Notes: generated from the sequence alone by a model not told the origin. A stretch of 49,262 nucleotides of DNA from Spirochaetales bacterium (GCA_031274005.1 JAISQU010000157.1:1-49262), one strand, 5' to 3'; shown: positions 38 through 49,262, counted from the stretch's first letter. Translations and numbers: made by a program.

Positions 38-76
38 ACGGAATAAGAAAATGCGGCATTTTCTTATTCCGTTTTT
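38..76 (+). terminator. Rho-independent terminator-like hairpin (16-bp perfect stem, 3-nt loop, T-run)
   Basis: ACGGAATAAGAAAATG-CGG-CATTTTCTTATTCCGT followed by TTTT. Probably ends a gene lying upstream of the window. Confidence 0.6.
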
Positions 77-543: not shown

Positions 544-1983
544 TTGAAGAAGGGCGTGTTTTCGGAGTATATTCTTCCCATGATGATACACAAAAGAACC
601 CCCGCTGCCATTCTTCTGCTCCTCTGCGCGGCGGGACTGAGCCTTGGCGTATCCGGCTGCGCGAGCCAGGCCGAAAGTTCCGAGGGCAGTATAGAAAAAC
701 CGCTTCCCGAGGAAGATGAACTCTATTCAGGGGTTGCGTATTCCCTGTCCATGGGAGACCCGGAACAGGCCATCCGCGCCCTTGAGGAGGCGCAGAAGCG
801 CGATCCTGATTCCCTTGAAGCAAAACAGCTTCTGGCGGATGTTTTTCTGCTGGTACAGCAGTTTGATGAAGCGCGGGCTCAGCTTGAGGAGATTCTGCGC
901 AAAGACCCGGACAATCAGAAAGCCTTGTACTCCCTGTCTCTTATTGAATCGGCTGCGGGTAAAACAAACGAACAGAAAAAAATCCTTGACCGTCTTCTTA
1001 AAATCAATCCGCAGAACGACAGCGCCCAGGCCGCCATGGGAGAAATTTTTCTGCGCGAAAAAAAATACGCCGACGCGGAAAAAATCTTTACCCAAAGCCT
1101 TGATAAAAATCCGGACAATCTTGTTGCCCTCATAGGACTGGGCAATACTCAACTGCGCCAGGGTAAAGCGGAGGAGGCGGCAACAACCCTGACGCAGGCC
1201 ATAGAACGGCAGCCTGACTATCCTTTTGCTTATACCGACCGCAGCAAGGCCCATGTGGGTAAGGGCGATCTGGAGGAAGCCGAAGCGGACCTGACAAAGG
1301 CCATCGGCCTGATTCCCGATTTTGCGTGGAATTATTATGATAGGGGCAAACTGCGGGCTAACAGCGGCAGCACTGCCGCGGCTCTGGAAGACCTGAACAA
1401 GGCCCTGGAGATGGATCCCGGAATCAGCCTTGCCTACTTTTACAGGGCCCGCATCTACGACGGCATGGAAAATATCGAAGCGGCCTATGCGGACTACAGA
1501 AAGGCTCAGAGTATGAATCCCCAATATCCTTACCTTAATCTGCCTCTGGCGATTCTGGAGTACAAAAAAGAAAACTGGACTCAGGCCGCCGCCTGCTTTA
1601 TCAGGGCGGCCGAAATAGAAAAAGATGAACATGCGTATCACCTTCTCGCGGCCCTGTGTTATAAAAAAGCGGGAAACGAAAAACAGGCCTTTGACTATCT
1701 GGGGAAAGTTCTGGGCCGCCTGCCCCGCGAGTCCCTTTTTTACCACATGGCGAGGTACTATATGCAGCCGTCTTCCGATCTTTTTATCATGCAGCAGGTA
1801 ACGGTCGAAAAAAACAAAATACTGAGGGCCCGTATGTTGTTTTACATAGCCGCGCAGTATACACTGCAAAACAGAATCCCCCCGGCAATGAAGTATTTTA
1901 TGGAAGCTGCCGGCGAGGAAACACGGGGGTACATTGAAAACAGAATCGCGGAGTGGGATTTGAAAAAAATCGGGGGAAAATAA
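544..1983 (+). CDS. TPR-repeat lipoprotein
   Basis: 479-aa ORF. It has a hydrophobic signal peptide ending in the lipobox LGVSG-C, and the body consists of repeated ~34-aa TPR-like units (A/Y/L/P-N-P spacing, e.g. KDPDNQKALYSL, KNPDNLVALIGLG, MDPGISLAYFY). TTG start is preceded by GGGAGG; an alternative ATG lies at 580. Confidence 0.8.
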   Translation: MKKGVFSEYILPMMIHKRTPAAILLLLCAAGLSLGVSGCASQAESSEGSIEKPLPEEDELYSGVAYSLSMGDPEQAIRALEEAQKRDPDSLEAKQLLADVFLLVQQFDEARAQLEEILRKDPDNQKALYSLSLIESAAGKTNEQKKILDRLLKINPQNDSAQAAMGEIFLREKKYADAEKIFTQSLDKNPDNLVALIGLGNTQLRQGKAEEAATTLTQAIERQPDYPFAYTDRSKAHVGKGDLEEAEADLTKAIGLIPDFAWNYYDRGKLRANSGSTAAALEDLNKALEMDPGISLAYFYRARIYDGMENIEAAYADYRKAQSMNPQYPYLNLPLAILEYKKENWTQAAACFIRAAEIEKDEHAYHLLAALCYKKAGNEKQAFDYLGKVLGRLPRESLFYHMARYYMQPSSDLFIMQQVTVEKNKILRARMLFYIAAQYTLQNRIPPAMKYFMEAAGEETRGYIENRIAEWDLKKIGGK

Positions 1984-15309: not shown

Positions 15310-15867
15310 ATGTTTCAAAAGAAAAGGCGTGGCGCGGATATAAACGATATTGCCGCTTTTTTCAGGGAGCTGGTTTCCCGCTCCGGGGAATTTCTGGGCC
15401 GGCCCGTGCGCGTGCATTTTATCGCGGATGCCGCTCAGTGCAGGGCCGGGTCTTCCGATGCGGGAGATTTCCTGCCCTTTCTGCGTATGGTACTTTTTGA
15501 CGCCGCCCAGAATACCGCTGCCAATCCGGACACATCTCTTCATGTTCATACAGCCGATGGGGGCGTGGCCGGCGCCGCCGGAGAAATCACCGCCGCCATT
15601 GCGGGCAAGTCCGGCGATGATATGAATAACGATGAGTTTTTTATCATAACCTGGGGAAAGGCGGGCATGCAAAAAAATCTCGTGAAGGAGTTTTCCGGCC
15701 TGCCCGAGGCCGCTCGGAAAAGGCTGACCCTGTTTCATTTGCCTCTGGGCATGGGTAATACACGGACTGAAATGAACGCCCTCGCGGCGGCGGTGAGGAC
15801 TCTTCTGAAAGGTAAGCGCATCGCGGCCGGCGAGGCGGGCCTGCGTATAGTTCAGGGGAAAATATAA
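15310..15867 (+). CDS. Hypothetical protein
   Basis: 185-aa ORF starting 2 nt after the CYTH stop, so possibly co-transcribed. No motif recognised. A longer antisense ORF (15121..15933) competes for this interval. Its 3' end overlaps the convergent MBL gene by 16 nt. Confidence 0.4.
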   Translation: MFQKKRRGADINDIAAFFRELVSRSGEFLGRPVRVHFIADAAQCRAGSSDAGDFLPFLRMVLFDAAQNTAANPDTSLHVHTADGGVAGAAGEITAAIAGKSGDDMNNDEFFIITWGKAGMQKNLVKEFSGLPEAARKRLTLFHLPLGMGNTRTEMNALAAAVRTLLKGKRIAAGEAGLRIVQGKI

Positions 15868-16724
15868 TACACGTGCTGCCGGGCGAATCCCGCAAAACCC
15901 GCCTCTTCCACGGCGGGAAGAACTTTTTCCCAACTGTCCTGATAATGCATCAGATAGGTTTTTGCCCTGATGTCTTTGGGCAGAGTCGACAATTCCTCCA
16001 AAGAAGAATGAACCCCGCCGGTGAAAAACTGACAGTCATGAAAAATTGCCTGGATTTTTTTGTTTGACCCGTAATCGCGGACCATGTCGGGGTCAAAGCG
16101 TGTGTCGCTGGAAAAAAGTATTATATTGTCGATGACAAGCCCGAAGCTGGGAAAGCTGTCTTCCCATGTGGAGGCGCTGTCGGGAATGTGCATGGTTCTG
16201 AATATTTTAAGGTTAATCGAACCAATATCGGCCTCCCATGTCTCACGGGGATAGCCGGCAGCCCATACGGGACGCTTTATTTCCCAAAAATCACCAAAGG
16301 TAAGGGGCTTGCCCCCCGTACGCTCATTGTAGGCCGCGCCGCCGGCCAGTGAATAATCCCACAGAATGTTTTCAAAATATTCAGGGATACAGATTGCCGG
16401 TTTTTTCTTTTTCATGTACCTGCTGGTAAGGCAGACCTCTTCAACGCCGCCTATGTGATCCGCATGTGTATGGGTCAGAAAATAATTGCGAATATTGCTT
16501 AGCGGGCAGCCGATACTGTGCAGAGCCTGAGGGGTTTTTGTGCCGCAGTCAACAAGCAGATGGTCTTTGCCCTTGATGATTAAAAGATTTGTCTGGTTAA
16601 GGATTTTTGAAAACGCGCTTCCTGTTCCGATAAAAAACAACCGCAGCTCTTCGTCTTCATATGAAAGACTGAGCTTTTCGCCATTGGCAAGTGGTTCTAT
16701 ACGCATACAATCAGTATAGCACAT
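15852..16724 (-). CDS. MBL-fold metallo-hydrolase
   Basis: 290 aa. HxHxDH motif (LTHTHADHIGG) with downstream His/Asp ligand positions typical of the metallo-beta-lactamase fold. Confidence 0.8.
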   Translation of the reverse strand: MCYTDCMRIEPLANGEKLSLSYEDEELRLFFIGTGSAFSKILNQTNLLIIKGKDHLLVDCGTKTPQALHSIGCPLSNIRNYFLTHTHADHIGGVEEVCLTSRYMKKKKPAICIPEYFENILWDYSLAGGAAYNERTGGKPLTFGDFWEIKRPVWAAGYPRETWEADIGSINLKIFRTMHIPDSASTWEDSFPSFGLVIDNIILFSSDTRFDPDMVRDYGSNKKIQAIFHDCQFFTGGVHSSLEELSTLPKDIRAKTYLMHYQDSWEKVLPAVEEAGFAGFARQHVYYIFP

Positions 16725-24705: not shown

Positions 24706-25119
24706 ATGGAGACGGATATCCGCTGGAAGCAGCGGTTCCAGAATTACCGCAAGGCTTTTTCTTGTTTGACAGGGGCTGTGCGCACAGCGAAAGAACATCC
24801 TCTCAGCGATATGGAACAATTGGGTCTGGTCAAAGCCTTTGAGTTTACTTTTGAGTTGTCCTGGAATGTGATGAAAGACTATCTAACAATGCAGGGTATT
24901 ACCGGAATAATCGGTTCAAGGGACGCCGTGAGGCAGGCTTTTAAGGCGGAATTAATTACGGACGGCCAGACATGGATGGAAATGATAGATTCCCGCAACT
25001 TAGCTTCCCATACATATAATGGTGATACAGCCGCCATGTTGACTGAAAAAATCCTACAAAACTATTATCGGGAATTCTCCGCTTTCGCGGAAAAAATGAT
25101 GGCCCTGGCGGAGTCATAA
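24706..25119 (+). CDS. HEPN-domain protein, HI0074 family (nucleotidyltransferase substrate-binding protein; HepT-like toxin)
   Basis: 137 aa. N-terminus DIRWKQRFQNYxKAF and an Rx4H motif (SRNLASHTY) are typical of the HI0074 family. Confidence 0.85.
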   Translation: METDIRWKQRFQNYRKAFSCLTGAVRTAKEHPLSDMEQLGLVKAFEFTFELSWNVMKDYLTMQGITGIIGSRDAVRQAFKAELITDGQTWMEMIDSRNLASHTYNGDTAAMLTEKILQNYYREFSAFAEKMMALAES

Positions 25120-25461
25120 ATGCCCTATGGATTGTCCCCCCGCACCCAAAAAACCCTTACTTCAATATTTGAAAAATATCCCGGAATACAAAAAGTGATA
25201 TTATACGGCAGCCGCGCTCTGGGATCCTATAGGCCCGGCTCGGATATCGATATTACCCTGTGTACCGGCCCCGCCTTTACCTTAAGCGATTTACTGAGGC
25301 TGATGGGCGATTTTGATGAGTCCGATATGCCGTATCTCGTTGATGTTTCTTTATATCAAAATCTGACAAACCCTGAACTGAAAGCCCATATCGACAGCGC
25401 GGGCAAAATTCTTTATTCGCGGACAGCGGCCTTTGAGGGCAAGCCGGTAGAATCCGTGTGA
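25120..25461 (+). CDS. Minimal nucleotidyltransferase (MNT; MntA-like antitoxin)
   Basis: 113 aa. GSxxxG...DxD signature (LYGSRALGSYRPGSDIDI). The ATG directly abuts the stop of the preceding HEPN gene. Confidence 0.85.
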   Translation: MPYGLSPRTQKTLTSIFEKYPGIQKVILYGSRALGSYRPGSDIDITLCTGPAFTLSDLLRLMGDFDESDMPYLVDVSLYQNLTNPELKAHIDSAGKILYSRTAAFEGKPVESV

Positions 25462-25492
25462 TATTGACGGCCGCCCGCTTTCAACCTATAGT

Positions 25493-25822
25493 TTGAGCAT
25501 GGACGCGGCAGTACAGACGGAAATCGATATGCTCACAAACATAATTGTACAAACCATTCCCGTGGAGCAGATTTACCTCTTCGGCTCCTACGCCTACGGT
25601 ACGCCGCATAAAGATTCCGATTTGGATTTGTATGTGGTGATGAAAGATGAAGTACAGATGCGGAATGTCGAGGCGGGGTTGAAAATTCGCTTTGCGATTG
25701 ATTCGCAAAAAACGATGCCTGTTGATGTTCTTGTGTCAAAAAAGCGGGAATATCTTCAAAACAAAGACGGTCCTACACTGGAACATAAAATCGCGCGCGA
25801 AGGCAGGCTGATTTATGGCTAA
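25493..25822 (+). CDS. Minimal nucleotidyltransferase (MNT), second module
   Basis: 109 aa. LFGSYAYGTPHKDSDLDLYVV signature. Confidence 0.8.
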   Translation: MSMDAAVQTEIDMLTNIIVQTIPVEQIYLFGSYAYGTPHKDSDLDLYVVMKDEVQMRNVEAGLKIRFAIDSQKTMPVDVLVSKKREYLQNKDGPTLEHKIAREGRLIYG

Positions 25823-26216
25823 CAAACCGGAAGACTGGTGTTTTTTAGCGGATAGGGATTTACGAGCGGCGGAACATCTTGCCTCGACTATGCGACCTGT
25901 TCCTGTTGAAATAATCTGTTTCCATTGCCAGCAGGCTGGCGAAAAATATCTGAAAGGCTTTGTTACCCTCAAGGAGAACAAAGAACCGCCATATATTCAC
26001 GATGTAGCCCAATTATGCAAACTGTGTGAAAAATATGATTCAACGTTTTCCGGTATCCTCAAACTGTGTTCCATTTTGACGGAATTTGGCATACAGCCCC
26101 GCTATGACCGTATGATGCAGCTATCGGAGGACGATATGCATCAGGCCGTAAAATGTGCGCAGGAAGTTGAAGTTTTTATCAAAACAAAGATGCCGGAAAC
26201 TGACGAAGGTATGTAA
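25815..26216 (+). CDS. HEPN-domain protein, second module
   Basis: 133 aa. CFHCQQAGEKYLKGF is typical of PF05168-type HEPN helix 1. It overlaps the preceding MNT gene by 8 nt. Confidence 0.75.
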   Translation: MANKPEDWCFLADRDLRAAEHLASTMRPVPVEIICFHCQQAGEKYLKGFVTLKENKEPPYIHDVAQLCKLCEKYDSTFSGILKLCSILTEFGIQPRYDRMMQLSEDDMHQAVKCAQEVEVFIKTKMPETDEGM

Positions 26217-26336
26217 AATCCTTCGCTATGCTTTCAATAATTACAATGGGAAGGGAAATTGGGGATTGAAGTCATACCCGGCGAACAGCCCGTAGGCGAA
26301 GGGCTGCCCCTGGCCAAGAGGGGACATTAATTGGCG

Positions 26337-26365
26337 TTGACAAATCCCGCAATAATGACTATATT
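26337..26365 (+). promoter_or_regulatory. Sigma-70 promoter of the tRNA array
   Basis: TTGACA (26337-26342), 17 nt, then TATATT (26360-26365). The tRNA 5' end lies 20 nt downstream of the -10. Confidence 0.6.
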
Positions 26366-26385
26366 GATTCCCCGATTGTATAAAC

Positions 26386-26470
26386 GGAGAGGTGTCCGAG
26401 TGGTTGAAGGAGGCGGTCTTGAAAACCGTTGAACCGCAAGGTTCCGGGGGTTCGAATCCCCCCTTCTCCG
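26386..26470 (+). tRNA. tRNA-Ser (anticodon UGA)
   Basis: Manual cloverleaf: acceptor GGAGAGG/CTTCTCC, anticodon stem GCGGT/ACCGT with loop CTTGAAA, long variable arm, T arm GGGGG-TTCGAAT-CCCCC, discriminator G. CCA is not encoded. Confidence 0.9.
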
Positions 26471-26613
26471 AAGGAGAAGGGGGGATTCGAAACGAGCCTT
26501 CGCCGACCGGGAGGGAGGAAAAGGCGGCAGGGATGCCGCCGGCAGAGGGCGAAGGCGGGTCTGCGGGAGCGAACAGGAGGTTCGCGACTGGAGACCGGTT
26601 CCCCCCTTCTCCG
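26471..26613 (+). repeat. tRNA-linked GC-rich structured repeat, copy A (full length)
   Basis: It starts with GGAGAAGGGGGGATTCGAAAC, an inverted copy of the tRNA 3' end. The core has hairpins GGCGGCA-GGGA-TGCCGCC and GCGAAC-AGGAG-GTTCGC. It ends in CCCCCCTTCTCCG, a direct copy of the tRNA-Ser(UGA) 3' end. Confidence 0.7.
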
Positions 26614-26670
26614 CGAAGGCATTCAGCAGCCGTGTGCTTCCTGGTGGTTAAGGTTTAGCAAACCGGTAAT

Positions 26671-26735
26671 GGGGGGGGGGTAGAAACGAGCCCCCGCCGG
26701 CCAGCGGGAGGAAAAGCGCGCGGCAGTTTAGCGTT
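26671..26735 (+). repeat. tRNA-linked repeat, copy D (degraded; begins with a G10 run)
   Basis: G10-TAGAAACGAGCCCCCGCCGGCCAGCGGGAGGAAAAGCGCGCGGCAG aligns to the 5' half of copies A-C. One hairpin arm plus loop is deleted. Confidence 0.55.
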
Positions 26736-26749
26736 ATAGACGACCAATT

Positions 26750-26837
<88 letters not shown>

Positions 26838-26841
26838 TAAA

Positions 26842-26866
26842 ACGGCGTTTGCTGCCGTGTTTTTTT
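26842..26866 (+). terminator. Short hairpin plus T7 run after tRNA-Ser(GCU)
   Basis: ACGGC-GTTTGCT-GCCGT followed by GTTTTTTT. Confidence 0.45.
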
Positions 26867-26900
26867 CGTGTTGGGTTAAGGCTTTAGAAAGCCGGGCAAT

Positions 26901-27030
26901 GGGGGATTCGAAACGAGCCCTCGCCGACCAACGGGAGGAAAAGGCGGCATGGATGCCGCCGGCAGAGGGCGAAGGCGGGTCGGAAGGAGCGAACAGGACG
27001 TTCGCGACTGGAGACCGACCCCCCTCTCCG
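26901..27030 (+). repeat. tRNA-linked GC-rich structured repeat, copy B (full core)
   Basis: Near-identical to copy A over more than 100 nt. Hairpins are GGCGGCA-TGGA-TGCCGCC and GCGAAC-AGGAC-GTTCGC. It ends in CCCCCCTCTCCGTA, which matches the 3' end of tRNA-Ser(GCU) rather than that of tRNA-Ser(UGA). Confidence 0.7.
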
Positions 27031-27033
27031 TAT

Positions 27034-27107
27034 GTGCCCATAGCTCAGTTGGATAGAGTACCAGATTGCGGATCTGGTGGTCGGAGGTTCGAACCCTCTT
27101 GGGCACG
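27034..27107 (+). tRNA. tRNA-Arg (anticodon GCG)
   Basis: Acceptor GTGCCCA/TGGGCAC, D arm GCTC-AGTTGGATA-GAGT, anticodon stem CCAGA/TCTGG with loop TTGCGGA (U33, G37), T arm GGAGG-TTCGAAC-CCTCT, discriminator G. Confidence 0.85.
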
Positions 27108-27114
27108 TTTTTTT

Positions 27115-27202
27115 GGAGAGATGCGAGAGCGGTTGAATCGGGCGGACTCGAAATCCGTTGCGCCGCATTGCGGCGCCGAGGGTTCGAATCCCTCTCTCTC
27201 CG
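27115..27202 (+). tRNA. tRNA-Ser (anticodon CGA)
   Basis: Acceptor GGAGAGA/TCTCTCC, anticodon stem GCGGA/TCCGT with loop CTCGAAA, long variable arm (GCGCCGCATTGCGGCGC), T arm GAGGG-TTCGAAT-CCCTC, discriminator G. Confidence 0.9.
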
Positions 27203-27288
27203 AAGGAGATGGAGGGATTCGAAACGAGCCCTCGCCGACCGGCAGGGAGGAAAAGCGCGCAGGGATGCGCGCGGCAGAGGGCGAAACA
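27203..27288 (+). repeat. tRNA-linked repeat, copy C (3'-truncated)
   Basis: It starts with GGAGATGGAGGGATTCGAAAC, an inverted copy of the preceding tRNA 3' end. It has the same core as A and B, but the hairpin is GCGCGCA-GGGA-TGCGCGC (three compensated pairs). Similarity ends after GAGGGCGAA. Confidence 0.65.
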
Positions 27289-27314
27289 CAGATTTTTTCA
27301 CATGAAAAAATCTG
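27289..27314. terminator. Perfect 12-bp palindromic A/T-flanked hairpin (bidirectional terminator-like)
   Basis: CAGATTTTTTCA-CA-TGAAAAAATCTG. Confidence 0.45.
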
Positions 27315-27317
27315 CCT

Positions 27318-27442
27318 CCCTTGGGTCCGCGCCAGGGATTGCAGCGGAAATCCTTTTTTGCCGCGGAACGCGGCAAAAAAGATTGGAGCGGAAAGCCCGG
27401 TTTTTTGTCCGCCTACGGCGGACAAAAAAGGCGCCCAAAAAG
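27318..27442 (+). repeat. Copy of the dispersed GGGATTGmAG hairpin-repeat family (X1)
   Basis: GCGCCAGGGATTGCAGCGGAAATCC-[TTTTTTGCCGCG-GAA-CGCGGCAAAAAA]-GATTGGAGCGGAAAGCCCGG-[TTTTTTGTCCGCC-TAC-GGCGGACAAAAAA]-GGCGCCCAAA. It aligns with the reverse complement of 49151-49262. Confidence 0.65.
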
Positions 27443-27459
27443 TTGTGTATGTGTGTGTT

Positions 27460-27546
27460 GGAGAGATGTCCGAGAGGCCGAAGGAGCACGCTTGGAAAGT
27501 GTGTGTATCCGTGAGGGTACCGTGGGTTCGAATCCCACTCTCTCCG
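27460..27546 (+). tRNA. tRNA-Ser (anticodon GGA)
   Basis: Acceptor GGAGAGA/TCTCTCC, anticodon stem CACGC/GTGTG with loop TTGGAAA, long variable arm, T arm GTGGG-TTCGAAT-CCCAC, discriminator G. Confidence 0.9.
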
Positions 27547-27551
27547 TATTT

Positions 27552-27676
27552 CCCCTTTAGCGGTGAAGGTCAGGCTCCGTGCAATTGGCTGGCGCCCAAC
27601 CCCGTCAGATCCGGAAGGAAGCAGCGGTAAGTGTCCGGCTGATGTGCCACAGATCGCTTGGCTGGAGCTAAAGGGG
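27552..27676 (+). ncRNA. ffs: Signal recognition particle RNA (small, 4.5S type)
   Basis: Conserved domain IV sequence GTCAGATCCGGAAGGAAGCAGCGGTAAG. Terminal helix CCCCTTTAGC...GCTAAAGGGG, followed by ATTTTTT. It lies immediately upstream of dnaX, as in the Bacillus scr-dnaX-yaaK-recR arrangement. Confidence 0.85.
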
Positions 27677-27704
27677 ATTTTTTCAGGGAGGCAGTTGAAG
27701 CGCC

Positions 27705-29339
27705 GTGTCATACGAAGTAACCGCCGCGAAAAAAAGGCCGTCATCTTTCGAATCCCTTGCGGGTCAGGATTTTGTCGTAGCGACGCTGAAAAACTCTATA
27801 AAAAGCGGACGCATTGCCCACGCGTATCTTTTTTCCGGCCCCAGGGGAGTGGGTAAAACTTCCGCGGCCCGGATTCTCGCAAAATCTCTGAATTGCTTAA
27901 AAAACGAAGGGCCCGCCGAGGAGCCCTGCGGAACCTGTACAAACTGCGTTGGGATAAGCCGCGGGAATTCCCTTGATGTCATAGAAATTGACGGCGCCTC
28001 GAATACGTCGGTCAATGATGTGCGGCAAATAAAGGACGAGGTTCTCTTTGCGCCGGGCGGAAGCCGGTATAAAGTCTACATCATAGATGAAGTACATATG
28101 CTGTCCGTCAACGCTTTTAACGCTCTTTTGAAAACCATTGAGGAGCCGCCGCCGTATATCGTCTTTATTTTTGCCACAACGGAAATCCAGAAAGTGCCCG
28201 CGACAATACGCTCGCGCTGCCAGCAGTTTAACTTCCGGCGCATATCCCTCCAGACCATTCGCGATCTTCTGAAAAAACTGTGCGATGAAATGGCCCTTGC
28301 CGCGGACAGCGACGCCCTTCTGTGGATTGCCAAAGAAGCGACAGGTTCCCTGCGGGACGCCTATACCCTTTTTGATCAGGTGGTCTCGTTTTCCGGGGAT
28401 TCCATTACCATCGCGAAAATACGGGACAAGCTGGGTTTTGCCGGCCTGGACAGAATGAATGAACTGTGCGAACTTTTCGCCGAGGGGAAAATCAATGAAA
28501 GTTTTCTTTTTCTTGATGATCTTTTTGCATCGGGAGTTTCGCCGGAACAGTTTGTGACGGATATGAGCGAATACTTCCGTAATATTTTGTGGCTGAAAAA
28601 TGGTATCCGCAGGGAGGCCATTCTTGGTTACGCCGCCGATGGTTTTTCGCAGAAAGTCATTCAGGCTTTCCAGCCGTATCAGATTGAAAAAGCCCTGGCT
28701 TTACTGTTCGAGTTGTATCGTAATTTACGGTACTCGCTGAATCAGCGTTTTGAGATAGAGCTTGTGGCCGCCCGGCTGGCCGATCTGAAAAATTACATTA
28801 CGCCGCAGCAGGTTGCCGCGCGGGTTTTGGCCCTGCGCAAAGAATTGAAGACGGGTTTTACCGTGCAGACCGCGGATGAGGGGTCTTCCGCCGGAGCCGC
28901 GGATTGCGGGGAGGAGCCTTCTCCCGCGGCCCTCTGTCCGGCGCAGAGCGGGGGGGGAAGCGGAAAGCAGGAAGAATATGCTGCGGGTGAAGGCGATGTT
29001 CCGGCGGAAAAAATAACGGCGATAATTCAGAACATACGCAAGAAAAAACTTGCTTTGGGTTCCAATCTGGAGAAAGCCGCCCTGTGGCGTATTACCGGGG
29101 ATGAGCTGTCCGTATTTTTTGACGCAAAATTCGCGGCGGATTTTATCCGCGGAGACCTCCTCCCGGTTGAAGAACAGGTCAGGGCGGTTCTGGGACGGAA
29201 GCTGAAGATTATCGTCAGGGAGGTCAAGGATGATGAGAAGGCCGAAGAAAGCGCCGCAGACCAGGAGGCCGTGGATGAAGAAGAGGAACGGGTGGTGGAA
29301 TCAGCAAAAAAAGTTTTTCGCGGCGAGGTCATACAATGA
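27705..29339 (+). CDS. dnaX: DNA polymerase III subunit gamma/tau
   Basis: 544 aa, GTG start. Walker A GPRGVGKTS, zinc module CGTCTNC, Walker B IIDEVHML, sensor TIRSRCQ. Confidence 0.95.
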   Translation: MSYEVTAAKKRPSSFESLAGQDFVVATLKNSIKSGRIAHAYLFSGPRGVGKTSAARILAKSLNCLKNEGPAEEPCGTCTNCVGISRGNSLDVIEIDGASNTSVNDVRQIKDEVLFAPGGSRYKVYIIDEVHMLSVNAFNALLKTIEEPPPYIVFIFATTEIQKVPATIRSRCQQFNFRRISLQTIRDLLKKLCDEMALAADSDALLWIAKEATGSLRDAYTLFDQVVSFSGDSITIAKIRDKLGFAGLDRMNELCELFAEGKINESFLFLDDLFASGVSPEQFVTDMSEYFRNILWLKNGIRREAILGYAADGFSQKVIQAFQPYQIEKALALLFELYRNLRYSLNQRFEIELVAARLADLKNYITPQQVAARVLALRKELKTGFTVQTADEGSSAGAADCGEEPSPAALCPAQSGGGSGKQEEYAAGEGDVPAEKITAIIQNIRKKKLALGSNLEKAALWRITGDELSVFFDAKFAADFIRGDLLPVEEQVRAVLGRKLKIIVREVKDDEKAEESAADQEAVDEEEERVVESAKKVFRGEVIQ

Positions 29340-30349: not shown

Positions 30350-30763
30350 ATGGGAACAGTTTACGCCGAGATCACTTTAAAAAACGCCGGTGATATAGCC
30401 GGCGTTCAGCGCGGATATATTACGGAAAAGGAAGTCCGCGCCACAACGGTACAAGCCCTGGTGGATACCGGCTGCGGAACCCTGGTTATCACCGATGAGG
30501 TCCGCAAGGCCTTGGGGCTTGAGATAGTAGGGCTGCGCGGCAGCACTCTTGCCAATGGCGCGCGTCAAGTCTGCCAGGTGACGGAACCGGTACAAATCCA
30601 TTGGAAAAACCGCGATACGGCGTGCAGGGCAATCGTGCTGCCGGGCGCGGAAGAGGTGCTTTTGGGCGCTATCCCCCTTGAGGATATGGATCTGATCATA
30701 AATCCGGCCCGGAAGGAATTGACCGGCGCCCACGGCGATGAGGTAATCTGCTTAATTAAGTAA
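30350..30763 (+). CDS. Retropepsin-like (clan AA) aspartic protease
   Basis: 137 aa. The active-site motif VDTGCGTLVIT (D-T-G) and LLGAIPLEDMDL are typical of single-domain bacterial retropepsin-like proteins. Strong SD GAAGGAGG. Confidence 0.75.
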   Translation: MGTVYAEITLKNAGDIAGVQRGYITEKEVRATTVQALVDTGCGTLVITDEVRKALGLEIVGLRGSTLANGARQVCQVTEPVQIHWKNRDTACRAIVLPGAEEVLLGAIPLEDMDLIINPARKELTGAHGDEVICLIK

Positions 30764-30775
30764 GAAGGAGGCATT

Positions 30776-31780
30776 ATGCGCGCGCTGGTTACAATTCAAA
30801 GAGTAAAGGCAATAACGGCAATTCCCGATTCGGATTTTCTTGAGGCGGCCCAGATCATGGGCTGGCAATGCGTGGTCAAGAAGGGCGAGTTCAAAGAGGG
30901 GGACCTGGGGGTTTATTTCGAGGTGGACAGTTTTCTCCCCATCGATCCGCGCTACGAGTTTTTGCGCAATTCCTCGTACCGCGAAAACGCGGATAACGGG
31001 AAAGGTTTCCGCATCCGCACCGCGAAGATGCGCGGCCAGCTTTCGCAGGGCCTTTTTTTGCCCCTCCCCCTGTTTCCCGAACTTGAAGGCTTTGCCGAGG
31101 GCGAGGATGTAACCGAAAAACTCGGCGTCAAAAAATGGTATGTCCCCGAAACCGCCGCCGCCGGAGGAACCATCATCGGCGAACGGCCCAACGGAATCCC
31201 CGCCTCCGACGAAATACGCCTACAGTCGGCCCTTGAACTGCTGGACGAACTCCGGGGCAAACCTTACTACATCACCACAAAAATGGACGGCACATCCGCC
31301 ATAGTCTATTACATAGCCGGAAAAATCGGCTGCTGCAGCCGCAACAAAGAAATCAAAGACGAAGCGGACGCCCTGTACTGGACGCCGGTTTACGCCTACG
31401 GCCTCAAGGAAAAGCTCCCGCGCTACGGAAAAAACATAGTCTTTACCGGAGAACTCTGCGGCCCGGGAATACAAAAAAACAAACTGAGGCTCCCCGCCCT
31501 CGCCTGGTATGTCTTCGACGTAAAAGACTGGGACACGGGCACATACCTTCCCTACGACGAAGCCCTTGAGCTCTGCGTTTCCCTCGGCCTCAGCTTTGTC
31601 CCCCTTGAGGAGCGGGGCGGCAGCTTTGCCTACACCCTGGAAGAACTGCTGGAAAAGGCCCGGGGCAAGTACCCCAGCGGCCTCGACAAAGAAGGCATAG
31701 TCGTGCGCCACGCCCTGTCCCCCAAAGCCGTTTCGTTCAAGGTTTTGAACAACGACGCGCTGCTGAAAGAGAAAGATTAA
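30776..31780 (+). CDS. ATP-dependent RNA ligase, DraRnl (DRB0094/Rnl5)-like, with N-terminal OB domain
   Basis: 334 aa. N-terminal OB-like segment (IPDSDFLEAAQIMGWQCVVKKGEFKEGDLGVYFEVDSFLP), nucleotidyltransferase motif I TTKMDGTS (KxDG), motif III FTGELCG, motif IV EGIVVR, motif V SFKVLNN. Strong SD GAAGGAGG. Confidence 0.75.
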   Translation: MRALVTIQRVKAITAIPDSDFLEAAQIMGWQCVVKKGEFKEGDLGVYFEVDSFLPIDPRYEFLRNSSYRENADNGKGFRIRTAKMRGQLSQGLFLPLPLFPELEGFAEGEDVTEKLGVKKWYVPETAAAGGTIIGERPNGIPASDEIRLQSALELLDELRGKPYYITTKMDGTSAIVYYIAGKIGCCSRNKEIKDEADALYWTPVYAYGLKEKLPRYGKNIVFTGELCGPGIQKNKLRLPALAWYVFDVKDWDTGTYLPYDEALELCVSLGLSFVPLEERGGSFAYTLEELLEKARGKYPSGLDKEGIVVRHALSPKAVSFKVLNNDALLKEKD

Positions 31781-49150: not shown

Positions 49151-49262
49151 GGAATTTGGGTGCATTTGCGGCGTAAAACGCCGCAAACCGGGCTTTTCGC
49201 TCCAATCTTTTGGCTACGCCAAAAGGATTTCCGCTTCAATCCCTTGCACGCCCGAGGGGGGG
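49151..49262 (-). repeat. Copy of the dispersed GGGATTGmAG hairpin-repeat family (X2), possibly truncated by the window edge
   Basis: The reverse complement reads GCGTGCAAGGGATTGAAGCGGAAATCC-[TTTTGGC-GTA-GCCAAAA]-GATTGGAGCGAAAAGCCCGG-[TTTGCGGCG-TTTTA-CGCCGCAAA]-TGCACCCAAA. It is collinear with 27318-27442. Confidence 0.65.

Follow-up and report, generated by a model that had tools for sequence, protein, structure and literature searches.

A palindrome behind tRNA-Ser(UGA) of a Spirochaetales bacterium as the probable junction with a tRNA-linked structured repeat element built like Escherichia coli RtT

The closest described counterpart of the element discussed here is RtT (RF00391; rttR), the 178-bp repeats of the Escherichia coli tyrT-tyrV locus, which occur once after tyrT and three times after tyrV. 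In 1991 Boesl and Kersten reportedly described a 171-nt rtT RNA that is processed from the tyrT transcript and may be connected with the stringent response. As far as we know, RtT is tied to one tRNA, that for tyrosine, in enterobacteria, and we know of no other instance of the layout described below. We analysed a stretch of 49,262 nucleotides from a Spirochaetales bacterium (GCA_031274005.1, JAISQU010000157.1:1-49262; henceforth the window, meaning the whole stretch), in which the tRNA-Ser(UGA) gene is followed, after three nucleotides, by an inverted copy of its own 3' end. We favour, with moderate confidence, the reading that this palindrome is the junction of tRNA-Ser(UGA) with a tRNA-linked structured repeat element built like RtT.

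The 3' end of tRNA-Ser(UGA) reads ...GGTTCGAATCCCCCCTTCTCC-G-AA-GGAGAAGGGGGGATTCGAAAC in the window. A repeat search recovered the two palindrome arms (26451-26469 and 26473-26491) as 19-nt segments that are 100% complementary with 3 nt between them, and thus all 19 of the contiguous Watson-Crick pairs claimed in a preliminary description of the sequence are present. According to a hairpin scan this is the longest perfect short-loop hairpin of the 49-kb window. The longest perfect stem in 100 dinucleotide-preserving shuffles averaged 8 bp, with a maximum of 14; since none attained 19 bp, the palindrome is real and not a chance occurrence. Its location at a gene end, where terminator hairpins are common, might invite its interpretation as an intrinsic terminator, if not as a chance or assembly artefact. 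However, what follows the palindrome is AACGAGCC and not a T run, no terminator was called there by the scan, and the same arrangement is seen in independent assemblies from NCBI, JGI and ENA; we hence consider explanations of this kind extremely improbable. At tRNA-Ser(CGA), the corresponding segments 27183-27201 and 27205-27223 are 89% complementary in the repeat search, and pairing them by hand reproduced the 17 Watson-Crick pairs, one G.U pair and one mismatch described earlier. The tRNA identities given in that description likewise agree with ARAGORN and Rfam. Elsewhere, window positions 38-72 hold a perfect 16-bp palindrome with a 3-nt loop (ACGGAATAAGAAAATG CGG CATTTTCTTATTCCGT), which ranks second in length in the window and probably acts as a terminator in both directions.

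The right arm of the palindrome opens a larger unit. A full copy consists of an antisense arm, a four-helix core (P2-P5) and a direct copy of the tRNA tail, with the arm and the tail copy forming a closing helix, P1. In the copy behind tRNA-Ser(UGA), copy A, positions 26473-26485 pair with 26600-26612 over 13 bp, which substantiates the "copy A closing helix" of the preliminary description; this copy folds at -88.3 kcal/mol (z = -7.4). The window carries four copies, A to D (Table 1), all in the tRNA-Ser/Arg cluster and none elsewhere, with an element length of ~130-140 nt. Concordantly, a search with a 17-mer from this unit (GAAACGAGCCCTCGCCG, allowing at most 3 mismatches) hit the window four times, always within 26489-27237, against an expectation of 0.36.

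Alignment of the copies with MAFFT followed by RNAalifold predicted five helices, namely P1, P2, the P3 hairpin, P4 and P5, with 18 pairs displaying compensatory changes. When 21 copies were aligned to the model, 97.7% of the cells paired and 22 of the 34 pairs showed double changes; fitting this alignment to the model inflates these pairing figures somewhat, and the independent MAFFT/RNAalifold result agrees with them. None of 500 column shuffles scored as high, and slid controls paired at only 42-56%. Within P1, four of the five pairs show double changes. Comparison of the copies thus shows that the arm and the direct copy pair, closing the predicted fold into an RNA that would end like the top half of a tRNA. 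With one invariant U.G pair set aside, G.U pairs outnumber A.C pairs by nine to two, which indicates that the folded strand is the tRNA-sense strand. The unpaired motifs GAAAC, CGCCGACC, GGGAGGAAAAG and CAG are invariant or nearly so. On the minus strand, the P3 hairpin followed by CTTTTCCTCCC was scored as terminator-like in three copies (26523-26541, 26943-26961 and 27255-27273), and the invariant GGGAGGAAAAG could also be read as a weak antisense terminator tail.

We also considered whether the element might be coding or belong to a known class of RNA. The former was rejected as the ATG of the P3 loop is frame-shifted or absent between copies while the stems change by compensatory swaps; moreover, no open reading frame (ORF) is conserved between copies. 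As to the latter, no Rfam 15 family matches the element at its gathering score or at E<=10, and the known self-cleaving ribozymes and group I/II introns yield no covariance-model match over it. Readings as a hammerhead, a hepatitis delta virus (HDV)-like or a twister ribozyme were rejected on account of the unfit order of motifs and the lack of an Rfam match. The sub-threshold matches comprise microRNA-type chance hits on a hairpin, a plastid 3' untranslated region model on the antisense tRNA and a tRNA-Ser-driven match to sX4, an sRNA (small RNA) of Xanthomonas (RF02223). The sX4 consensus combines a tRNA-Ser with a trailer GGGGGG that pairs back onto CCCCCC of the T stem and acceptor 3' strand, and it matches three window tRNA-Ser genes and the first part of the spacer or element behind each (34.1, 27.7 and 20.9 bits; gathering score 70). 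However, the score comes almost wholly from the tRNA-Ser, the downstream alignment is mostly gaps, and the sX4 consensus lacks the core motifs of our element.

A covariance model, R1, built from 13 full copies was searched against ~200 kb of fetched related loci (labelled L001 onwards) and the window, where it scores copy A at 128.6 bits (26478-26606). It recovered 31 copies, each on the same strand as a tRNA gene that lies directly upstream of it; the loci come from Spirochaetota and Omnitrophota, and the family spans at least these two phyla. The hosts belong to 14 tRNA species (Ser x4, Arg x2, Pro, Ala, Glu, Asp, Leu, Lys, Gly and Val). A pattern scan of metagenomes had returned 16 true loci and 5 coding false positives. 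In the genome collection a first strict DNA pattern gave no match and a second matched only a Treponemataceae metagenome-assembled genome (L007); as the second pattern left out the common GAAACGAAGCC variant, the distribution in genomes is underestimated. The element pattern had no match in viral contigs, phage records or plasmid records, and we found no description of the family in the literature searched on tRNA-linked miniature elements. One locus, L018, assigned to Candidatus Omnitrophota by its PtsI homologues, carries three copies, behind Leu, Lys and Gly tRNAs. In several of the Omnitrophota-type copies (L016, L018, L019, L023 and L024) the P2 strands are non-complementary and instead share a direct hexamer (GTGAAC...GTGAAC; GTAAGC...GTAAGC), while in L018 the P2 of the Lys and Gly copies is still complementary and their P3 carries an insert of ~35 nt.

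Across the family, the arm starts opposite C56 of the T loop, its last bases together with the following AA complementing TTCGA, and is a perfect complement over 7-17 nt. The direct copy spans C56 to the 3' end of the tRNA, with 18/18 to 21/21 identical positions in most full copies and lower identity in diverged ones, and the direct repeats sometimes extend a few nucleotides past the tRNA 3' end. CCA is present in the tail copy only where the tRNA gene itself encodes it, which points to the tail having been copied from DNA or the primary transcript and not from a mature tRNA.

These features are closely paralleled by RtT. Like RtT, the element lies just downstream of a tRNA gene on the same strand (4/4 copies in the window, 31/31 overall), finishes with a direct repeat of that tRNA's 3' end (AATCCTTCCCCCACCACCA in RtT) and has an antisense arm after a spacer (GGGGAAGGAT in RtT), which the RF00391 consensus pairs with the tail copy. 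The RtT core is GC-rich and multi-helix, with a hairpin preceded by GAGAGAG, the window counterpart of which is the purine run GGGAGGAAAAG; short strings, CGACCAAGG with CGACCAACGG and GGGCGAAG, are common to both, and tandem and partial units occur in RtT as in our family. In contrast to RtT, the family sits behind 14 tRNA species, with the arm and tail re-tailored to each. Further, the RtT arm begins at nt 59, having lost the complement of the T loop, while the arms of our elements start opposite C56; and the spacer of ~55 nt explains why E. coli RtT forms no tight palindrome with its tRNA. The E. coli "protamine-like protein" gene tpr (L034, NC_000913.3:1287087-1287176) lies wholly within one RtT unit, with its ATG just 5' of the antisense arm and its stop just 5' of the tRNA-tail copy; this arginine-rich ORF may result incidentally from a fold rich in GC and purines.

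The preliminary description had cautioned that the arm of copy D is 2 positions off the complement of either tRNA, which we also find, and had left open whether an arm tracks its own tRNA. The related loci settle this point. The inverted copy is kept in L001, L008, L021, L025 and L027, and behind tRNA-Ser(UGA) the arm matches the local variant of the tRNA: CCCCCCTTCTCC in the window, CCTACCATCTCC in L021, L025 and L027, and CCCCCCTGCTCC in L008. Given this co-change, and arms matching 14 tRNA species, the arm tracks the local tRNA. What sets the 26449-26493 segment apart is its 3-nt spacer, rather than the arm.

Each element is thus an insertion immediately behind the 3' end of a co-oriented tRNA gene, with an arm antisense to the T loop, the T-stem 3' strand and, variably, the acceptor 3' strand, followed by the conserved core and a direct tRNA copy that begins at C56. 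Under the reading we favour, it would be read through from the tRNA promoter; the cluster promoter is the only promoter-like site in 26200-27750, and the same motif precedes the cluster in L001, L003, L005, L021 and L025. The ends of the RNA would be made by the enzymes that mature tRNAs, as is reported for the 171-nt rtT RNA. Because both tails carry the same sequence, the arm would inevitably pair with the tRNA's own tail as well. Copies A and D combine a spacer of no more than 2-3 nt with an arm that extends through the acceptor strand, and there this by-product would become a 19-bp hairpin, which may transiently compete with the cloverleaf.

We ran the energy comparison between hairpin and cloverleaf that had been proposed earlier using ViennaRNA, the energy model of which leaves out tRNA tertiary structure, modification and the co-transcriptional order of folding. 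For the tRNA of window copy A alone it gave -33.8 kcal/mol; with the arm added, the minimum was -56.5 kcal/mol with the cloverleaf lost, against -33.8 kcal/mol with the cloverleaf enforced. The whole precursor reached -129.6 kcal/mol in a strand-swapped fold, in which the genuine tail is held by the arm and the tRNA 5' strands pair with the tail copy, against -121.8 kcal/mol for the cloverleaf plus the closed element. At copy D, the values were -42.6 kcal/mol for the tRNA alone, -55.2 for the tRNA plus arm and -42.6 with the cloverleaf enforced, and, for the whole precursor with its truncated copy, -87.2 against -75.1 kcal/mol. The copies L001, L021a and L027a fold like those of window A and D, while window C, L007 and E. 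coli RtT, in which the arm is short and the spacer long, retain the cloverleaf when tRNA and arm are folded together. Of the earlier proposal that three structures compete for one segment, the energetic part thus stands, with the predictions favouring the hairpin or the strand-swapped fold, while competition as the function of the arrangement finds no support; nor does anything support the cruciform suggested for the DNA, at which no test was aimed.

That proposal amounts to a selected RNA switch, in which the hairpin would sequester the acceptor 3' strand, T stem and T loop and so gate the folding or processing of tRNA-Ser, with the tail copy acting as the release strand. It can draw on the hairpin being favoured by 13-23 kcal/mol at the tRNA-plus-arm stage in 5/5 short-spacer copies (window A, D, L001, L021a and L027a), on the strand-swapped fold being favoured by 4.5-12 kcal/mol in the full precursor, and on the retention of the short-spacer, long-arm layout behind Ser(UGA) and Ser(CGA) among genomes with dnaX 69-81% identical. 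However, in most members of the family the spacer measures 13-100 nt and the arm 7-10 nt, and those tested retain the cloverleaf; copy D has no release strand; and the factors that the energy model omits bear directly on such a switch. Moreover, arms of 15 pairs are found 62-72 nt from the tRNA in L011 (Ala) and L020 (Pro), and the tRNAs need no element, as L001, the closest relative, has none behind Ser(UGA) and L003 and L005 none at all. As long arms occur far from the tRNA and close relatives manage without the element, the arm seems to have been selected for P1. We accordingly deem a switch quite unlikely: the hairpin with the tRNA is probably not the reason for the existence of the inverted copy, the selected partner of the arm being probably the downstream tail copy, and competition with the cloverleaf at the two short-spacer copies of the window is reasonably regarded, on these predicted energies, as a secondary consequence. 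Covariation cannot separate the two partners of the arm because the downstream copy is the tRNA tail.

The genomic neighbourhood permits the history of the element to be traced. The window cluster is flanked by ffs, dnaX, ybaB and recR, and relatives share the order Ser(UGA)-Ser(GCU)-Arg-Ser(CGA)-Ser(GGA)-ffs-dnaX. By its dnaX homologues the window belongs to an uncultured lineage of Spirochaetales. L003 and L005 (dnaX 63-65% identical to that of the window) have the same tRNA order with spacers of 1-50 nt and no element. L001 (81%) carries a single full copy, which follows Ser(CGA) and whose arm (GAGAGAGGGATTCG) and tail copy (CGAATCCCTCTCTCTCCG) both match that tRNA. Copies behind Ser(UGA), Ser(GCU) and Ser(CGA), along with stubs, are found in L021 and in L027 (69%; same contig as L031), whereas L025 has one copy and one remnant and L029 (70%) one decayed copy. 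In the element-bearing loci the ancestral spacer resumes past the distal tail copy; this, together with the element-free outgroup loci, indicates that the element is an insertion gained and lost in the clade. Gain would proceed by duplicative insertion at tRNA 3' ends, and loss is readily explained, we infer, by recombination between the two identical tails. Core identity between the window and L027 is 80-88%, against 41% at the 4-fold sites of dnaX, and copies within one genome are often closer to one another than to their positional orthologues, a combination that fits constraint plus concerted evolution or recent copying. Tandem, partial or core-deleted derivatives (L027:1603-1712; L021:1703-1745; L018:10950-11005 (-); L025:~590-640 (-)) repeat the spacer, arm and first core bases after the distal tail copy, for example as an arm plus remnant. 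Such forms in L018, L021 and L027, along with a core-less "solo" in L027 (GGGGGATTCGAA|CCGAATCACC), show ongoing rearrangement.

Repeats of the tRNA tail from the T loop are the classic signature of integration at the T-loop sublocation, and the element accordingly resembles tRNA-targeting integrative elements (tyrosine-integrase islands, CIME-type): direct repeats of the tRNA 3' part, starting in the T loop, lie on either side of the insert, the tRNA is left intact, the ancestral flank follows the distal repeat, and presence or absence varies among related genomes. This raises the alternative of a miniature non-autonomous integrative element acting at the DNA level, mobilised in trans by a T-loop-targeting recombinase, with the tails as attL and attR, the folded core acting as single-stranded or protein-bound DNA, and any RNA incidental. 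The direct repeats from C56 to the tRNA 3' end do resemble att repeats, the empty sites in related genomes are clean, the tandem and partial forms look like accretion and decay, and the similarity of copies within a genome and the presence of the family in two phyla would also fit. Unlike integrative elements, however, the insert spans 140-250 bp and not kilobases, very small for excision as a circle, and has neither integrase nor cargo; a Pfam scan of the 40 ORFs of the window found no integrase, recombinase, transposase or reverse transcriptase, and there is no phage, plasmid or viral match. The junctions are also unlike core sites: at the proximal junction arm and repeat lie 10-100 bp apart and not the 6-8 bp that separate core-type inverted sites, and the distal repeat is preceded by a constant sequence (GGAGAC, GGAAGG or GTAAC) that does not resemble a T stem. 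Finally, the element contains an antisense copy of the repeat, the G.U excess and five covarying helices point to a conserved interior that folds as a single strand in the tRNA sense, and closely related, even near-identical, cores occur at many tRNA species, each with a matching tail. We therefore consider a purely DNA-level element unlikely.

Three other candidate origins were rejected. The inverted repeats change with the target tRNA and the duplication is of 14-26 bp, set by the tRNA end, unlike in miniature inverted-repeat transposable elements, which have element-specific terminal repeats and short duplications of fixed length. The arm lacks the complement of the discriminator and CCA expected of a retroviral-type primer-binding site. 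Nor is it a relic of the tRNA's own 5' strands, since it is a perfect complement where the tRNA has G.U (GGAGAAG against GGAGAGG; GTAGG against GTGGG).

The form of the closing helix also calls to mind transfer-messenger RNA (tmRNA) and the tRNA-like ends of viral or plasmid RNAs. The long-arm P1 is a 12-17 bp minihelix of acceptor and T stem bearing the tRNA's own discriminator, and CCA where it is gene-encoded, with a large structured insert in the position of the T loop. In contrast to these tRNA-like ends, the element has no T loop or D-loop analogue and most copies have no acceptor 5' strand; ARAGORN called no tmRNA. A speculative extension, to which we accord little probability, is that the element is a self-propagating mimic of the tRNA top half that gains antisense and sense copies of the target tRNA 3' end by templated copying and acts as a decoy, with RtT as a degenerate relative. 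The insertion mechanism would then rewrite the element's own ends to match each target, and the resulting minihelix RNA would share with the host tRNA its acceptor and T stem, its discriminator and its CCA status. RNase P would cut 2-3 nt past the upstream tRNA, the 3' end would be matured like that of a tRNA, and CCA addition or charging would be possible. Such an RNA could lure away, or compete for, enzymes or toxins that recognise the 3' ends of tRNAs.

Several observations weigh against the RtT-like reading that we nevertheless prefer. RF00391 has no match at E<=10 on 26200-27700, nor at E<=1 in L016, L018, L019, L023 and L024, and its gathering threshold of 45 bits is not reached by the element, while the four E. 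coli units score 133-137 bits in the same search. Conversely, our models R1 and R2 give the RtT units a non-significant 7-10 bits, and an unrelated stretch scores equally high; homology to RtT is hence not demonstrable by covariance model, and the family is RtT-like in layout yet not assigned to RF00391. Read-through is not assured at window C, L015 and L028, as a terminator-like hairpin lies between tRNA and element, and no convincing internal promoter was found. The RNA is not universally maintained, as copies in window B, D, L014, L025 and L029 are decayed or truncated. The arm of copy A pairs over 19 bp with the real tRNA, as a switch would have it, against 13 bp with the tail copy, P1 being so short there because the tail copy drifted from CGAAT to CGGTT. 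Lastly, the reading does not account for the matching of arm and tail to each new tRNA.

Table 1. Features of the tRNA-Ser/Arg cluster and its four element copies (bit scores of copies from model R1)
Feature	Position	Strand	Remarks
sigma-70-like promoter of the tRNA cluster	26337..26365	+	TTGACA-17-TATATT; 11/12 consensus matches
tRNA-Ser(UGA)	26386..26470	+	ARAGORN, Rfam 55.9 bits; nt 54-72 (26451-26469) form the palindrome left arm
Antisense arm of copy A	26473..26491	+	perfect complement of tRNA nt 54-72; palindrome right arm; 5' strand of P1
Copy A, full length	26473..26613	+	arm, core P2-P5, direct copy of tRNA 3' end TCCCCCCTTCTCCG at 26600-26613
Copy B, 3'-truncated	26643..26726	+	5' extension hairpin, G10 run, then GTAGAAACGAG...GGGAGGAAAAGCGCGCGGCAG; 33 bits
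tRNA-Ser(GCU)	26750..26837	+	ARAGORN, Rfam
Terminator-like hairpin and T7 run	26842..26866	+	between tRNA-Ser(GCU) and copy C
Copy C, full length	26871..27032	+	145 bits at 26899-27026; abuts tRNA-Arg
tRNA-Arg(GCG)	27034..27107	+	ARAGORN, Rfam
tRNA-Ser(CGA)	27115..27202	+	ARAGORN, Rfam; nt 54-72 (27183-27201) form the second palindrome left arm
Copy D	27205..27285	+	arm 27205-27223 and 5' module (P2, P3); 70.4 bits

The remaining copies of the window differ from copy A in their surroundings and completeness. Comparison with the spacer of L001 places copy B inside the ancestral Ser(UGA)-Ser(GCU) spacer. Copy C has a 5' extension (GGTTAAGG-hairpin-GGCAATGG), then the arm GGGGGATTCGAA at 26901-26912, and ends in a direct copy of the tRNA-Ser(GCU) 3' end (CCCCCCTCTCCGTA, 27019-27032); a hairpin homologous to the terminator-like one before it, without the T run, is present in L001 and L025, both of which are without copy C. 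Copy D has neither the 3' module nor the direct copy, in place of which are a hairpin (27289-27314) and a Flavo-1 motif; its full-length orthologue is L001:4140-4281. A 5' extension of GGTTAAGG, a small hairpin and GGTAATGG precedes the arm at window 26643-26672 and 26871-26898, L021:1878-1912 and L032:175-205; beyond copies B and C it is thus also found in some orthologues, and in copy C it directly follows the terminator-like hairpin. The extension might carry a promoter for the downstream tRNAs; a scan and inspection by eye found no acceptable -10 element for an internal promoter in that of copies B and C.

The Flavo-1 RNA (RF01705) is found twice in the window, at 27326-27406 (+) and 49182-49251 (-), with 62.9 and 50.7 bits, above the gathering score. 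Each match precedes a tRNA gene on its own strand, Ser-GGA in the first case and Lys-UUU in the second; this RNA, named for Bacteroidetes, is here found in a Spirochaetales genome, and L032:230-350 has a similar sequence in the same position. Just upstream of the tRNA promoter, window 24706-26216 encodes two toxin-antitoxin-like pairs of a HEPN or substrate-binding protein with an MNT-type nucleotidyltransferase. They look inserted, as parB ends just upstream of the cluster in L001 and L005, while matE and marR lie between in L003. Similarly, the genes for a retropepsin-like aspartyl protease and an RNA ligase (PHA02142-type OB fold) after recR (30350-31780) look like a lineage-specific insertion, because pth follows recR in L001-L005. 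An ORF on the minus strand (15852-16724) matches the Anti-Pycsar Apyc1 family, with a metallo-beta-lactamase fold, at 129 bits, in a chromosomal context.

At a practical level, this family cautions that tRNA 3' fragments beside tRNA genes are not always integrase scars, and that covariance is unable to separate pairing with a tRNA from pairing with a copy of that tRNA. It also poses a mechanistic puzzle, namely how one core gains ends matched to each new tRNA. RtT has long been an orphan curiosity of one E. coli tRNA operon. Because dozens of diverged copies now define a fold and its invariant motifs, the function of RtT-type RNAs becomes testable; and if these elements are counterparts of RtT, the same design for joining a folded RNA to tRNA operons would recur across phyla.

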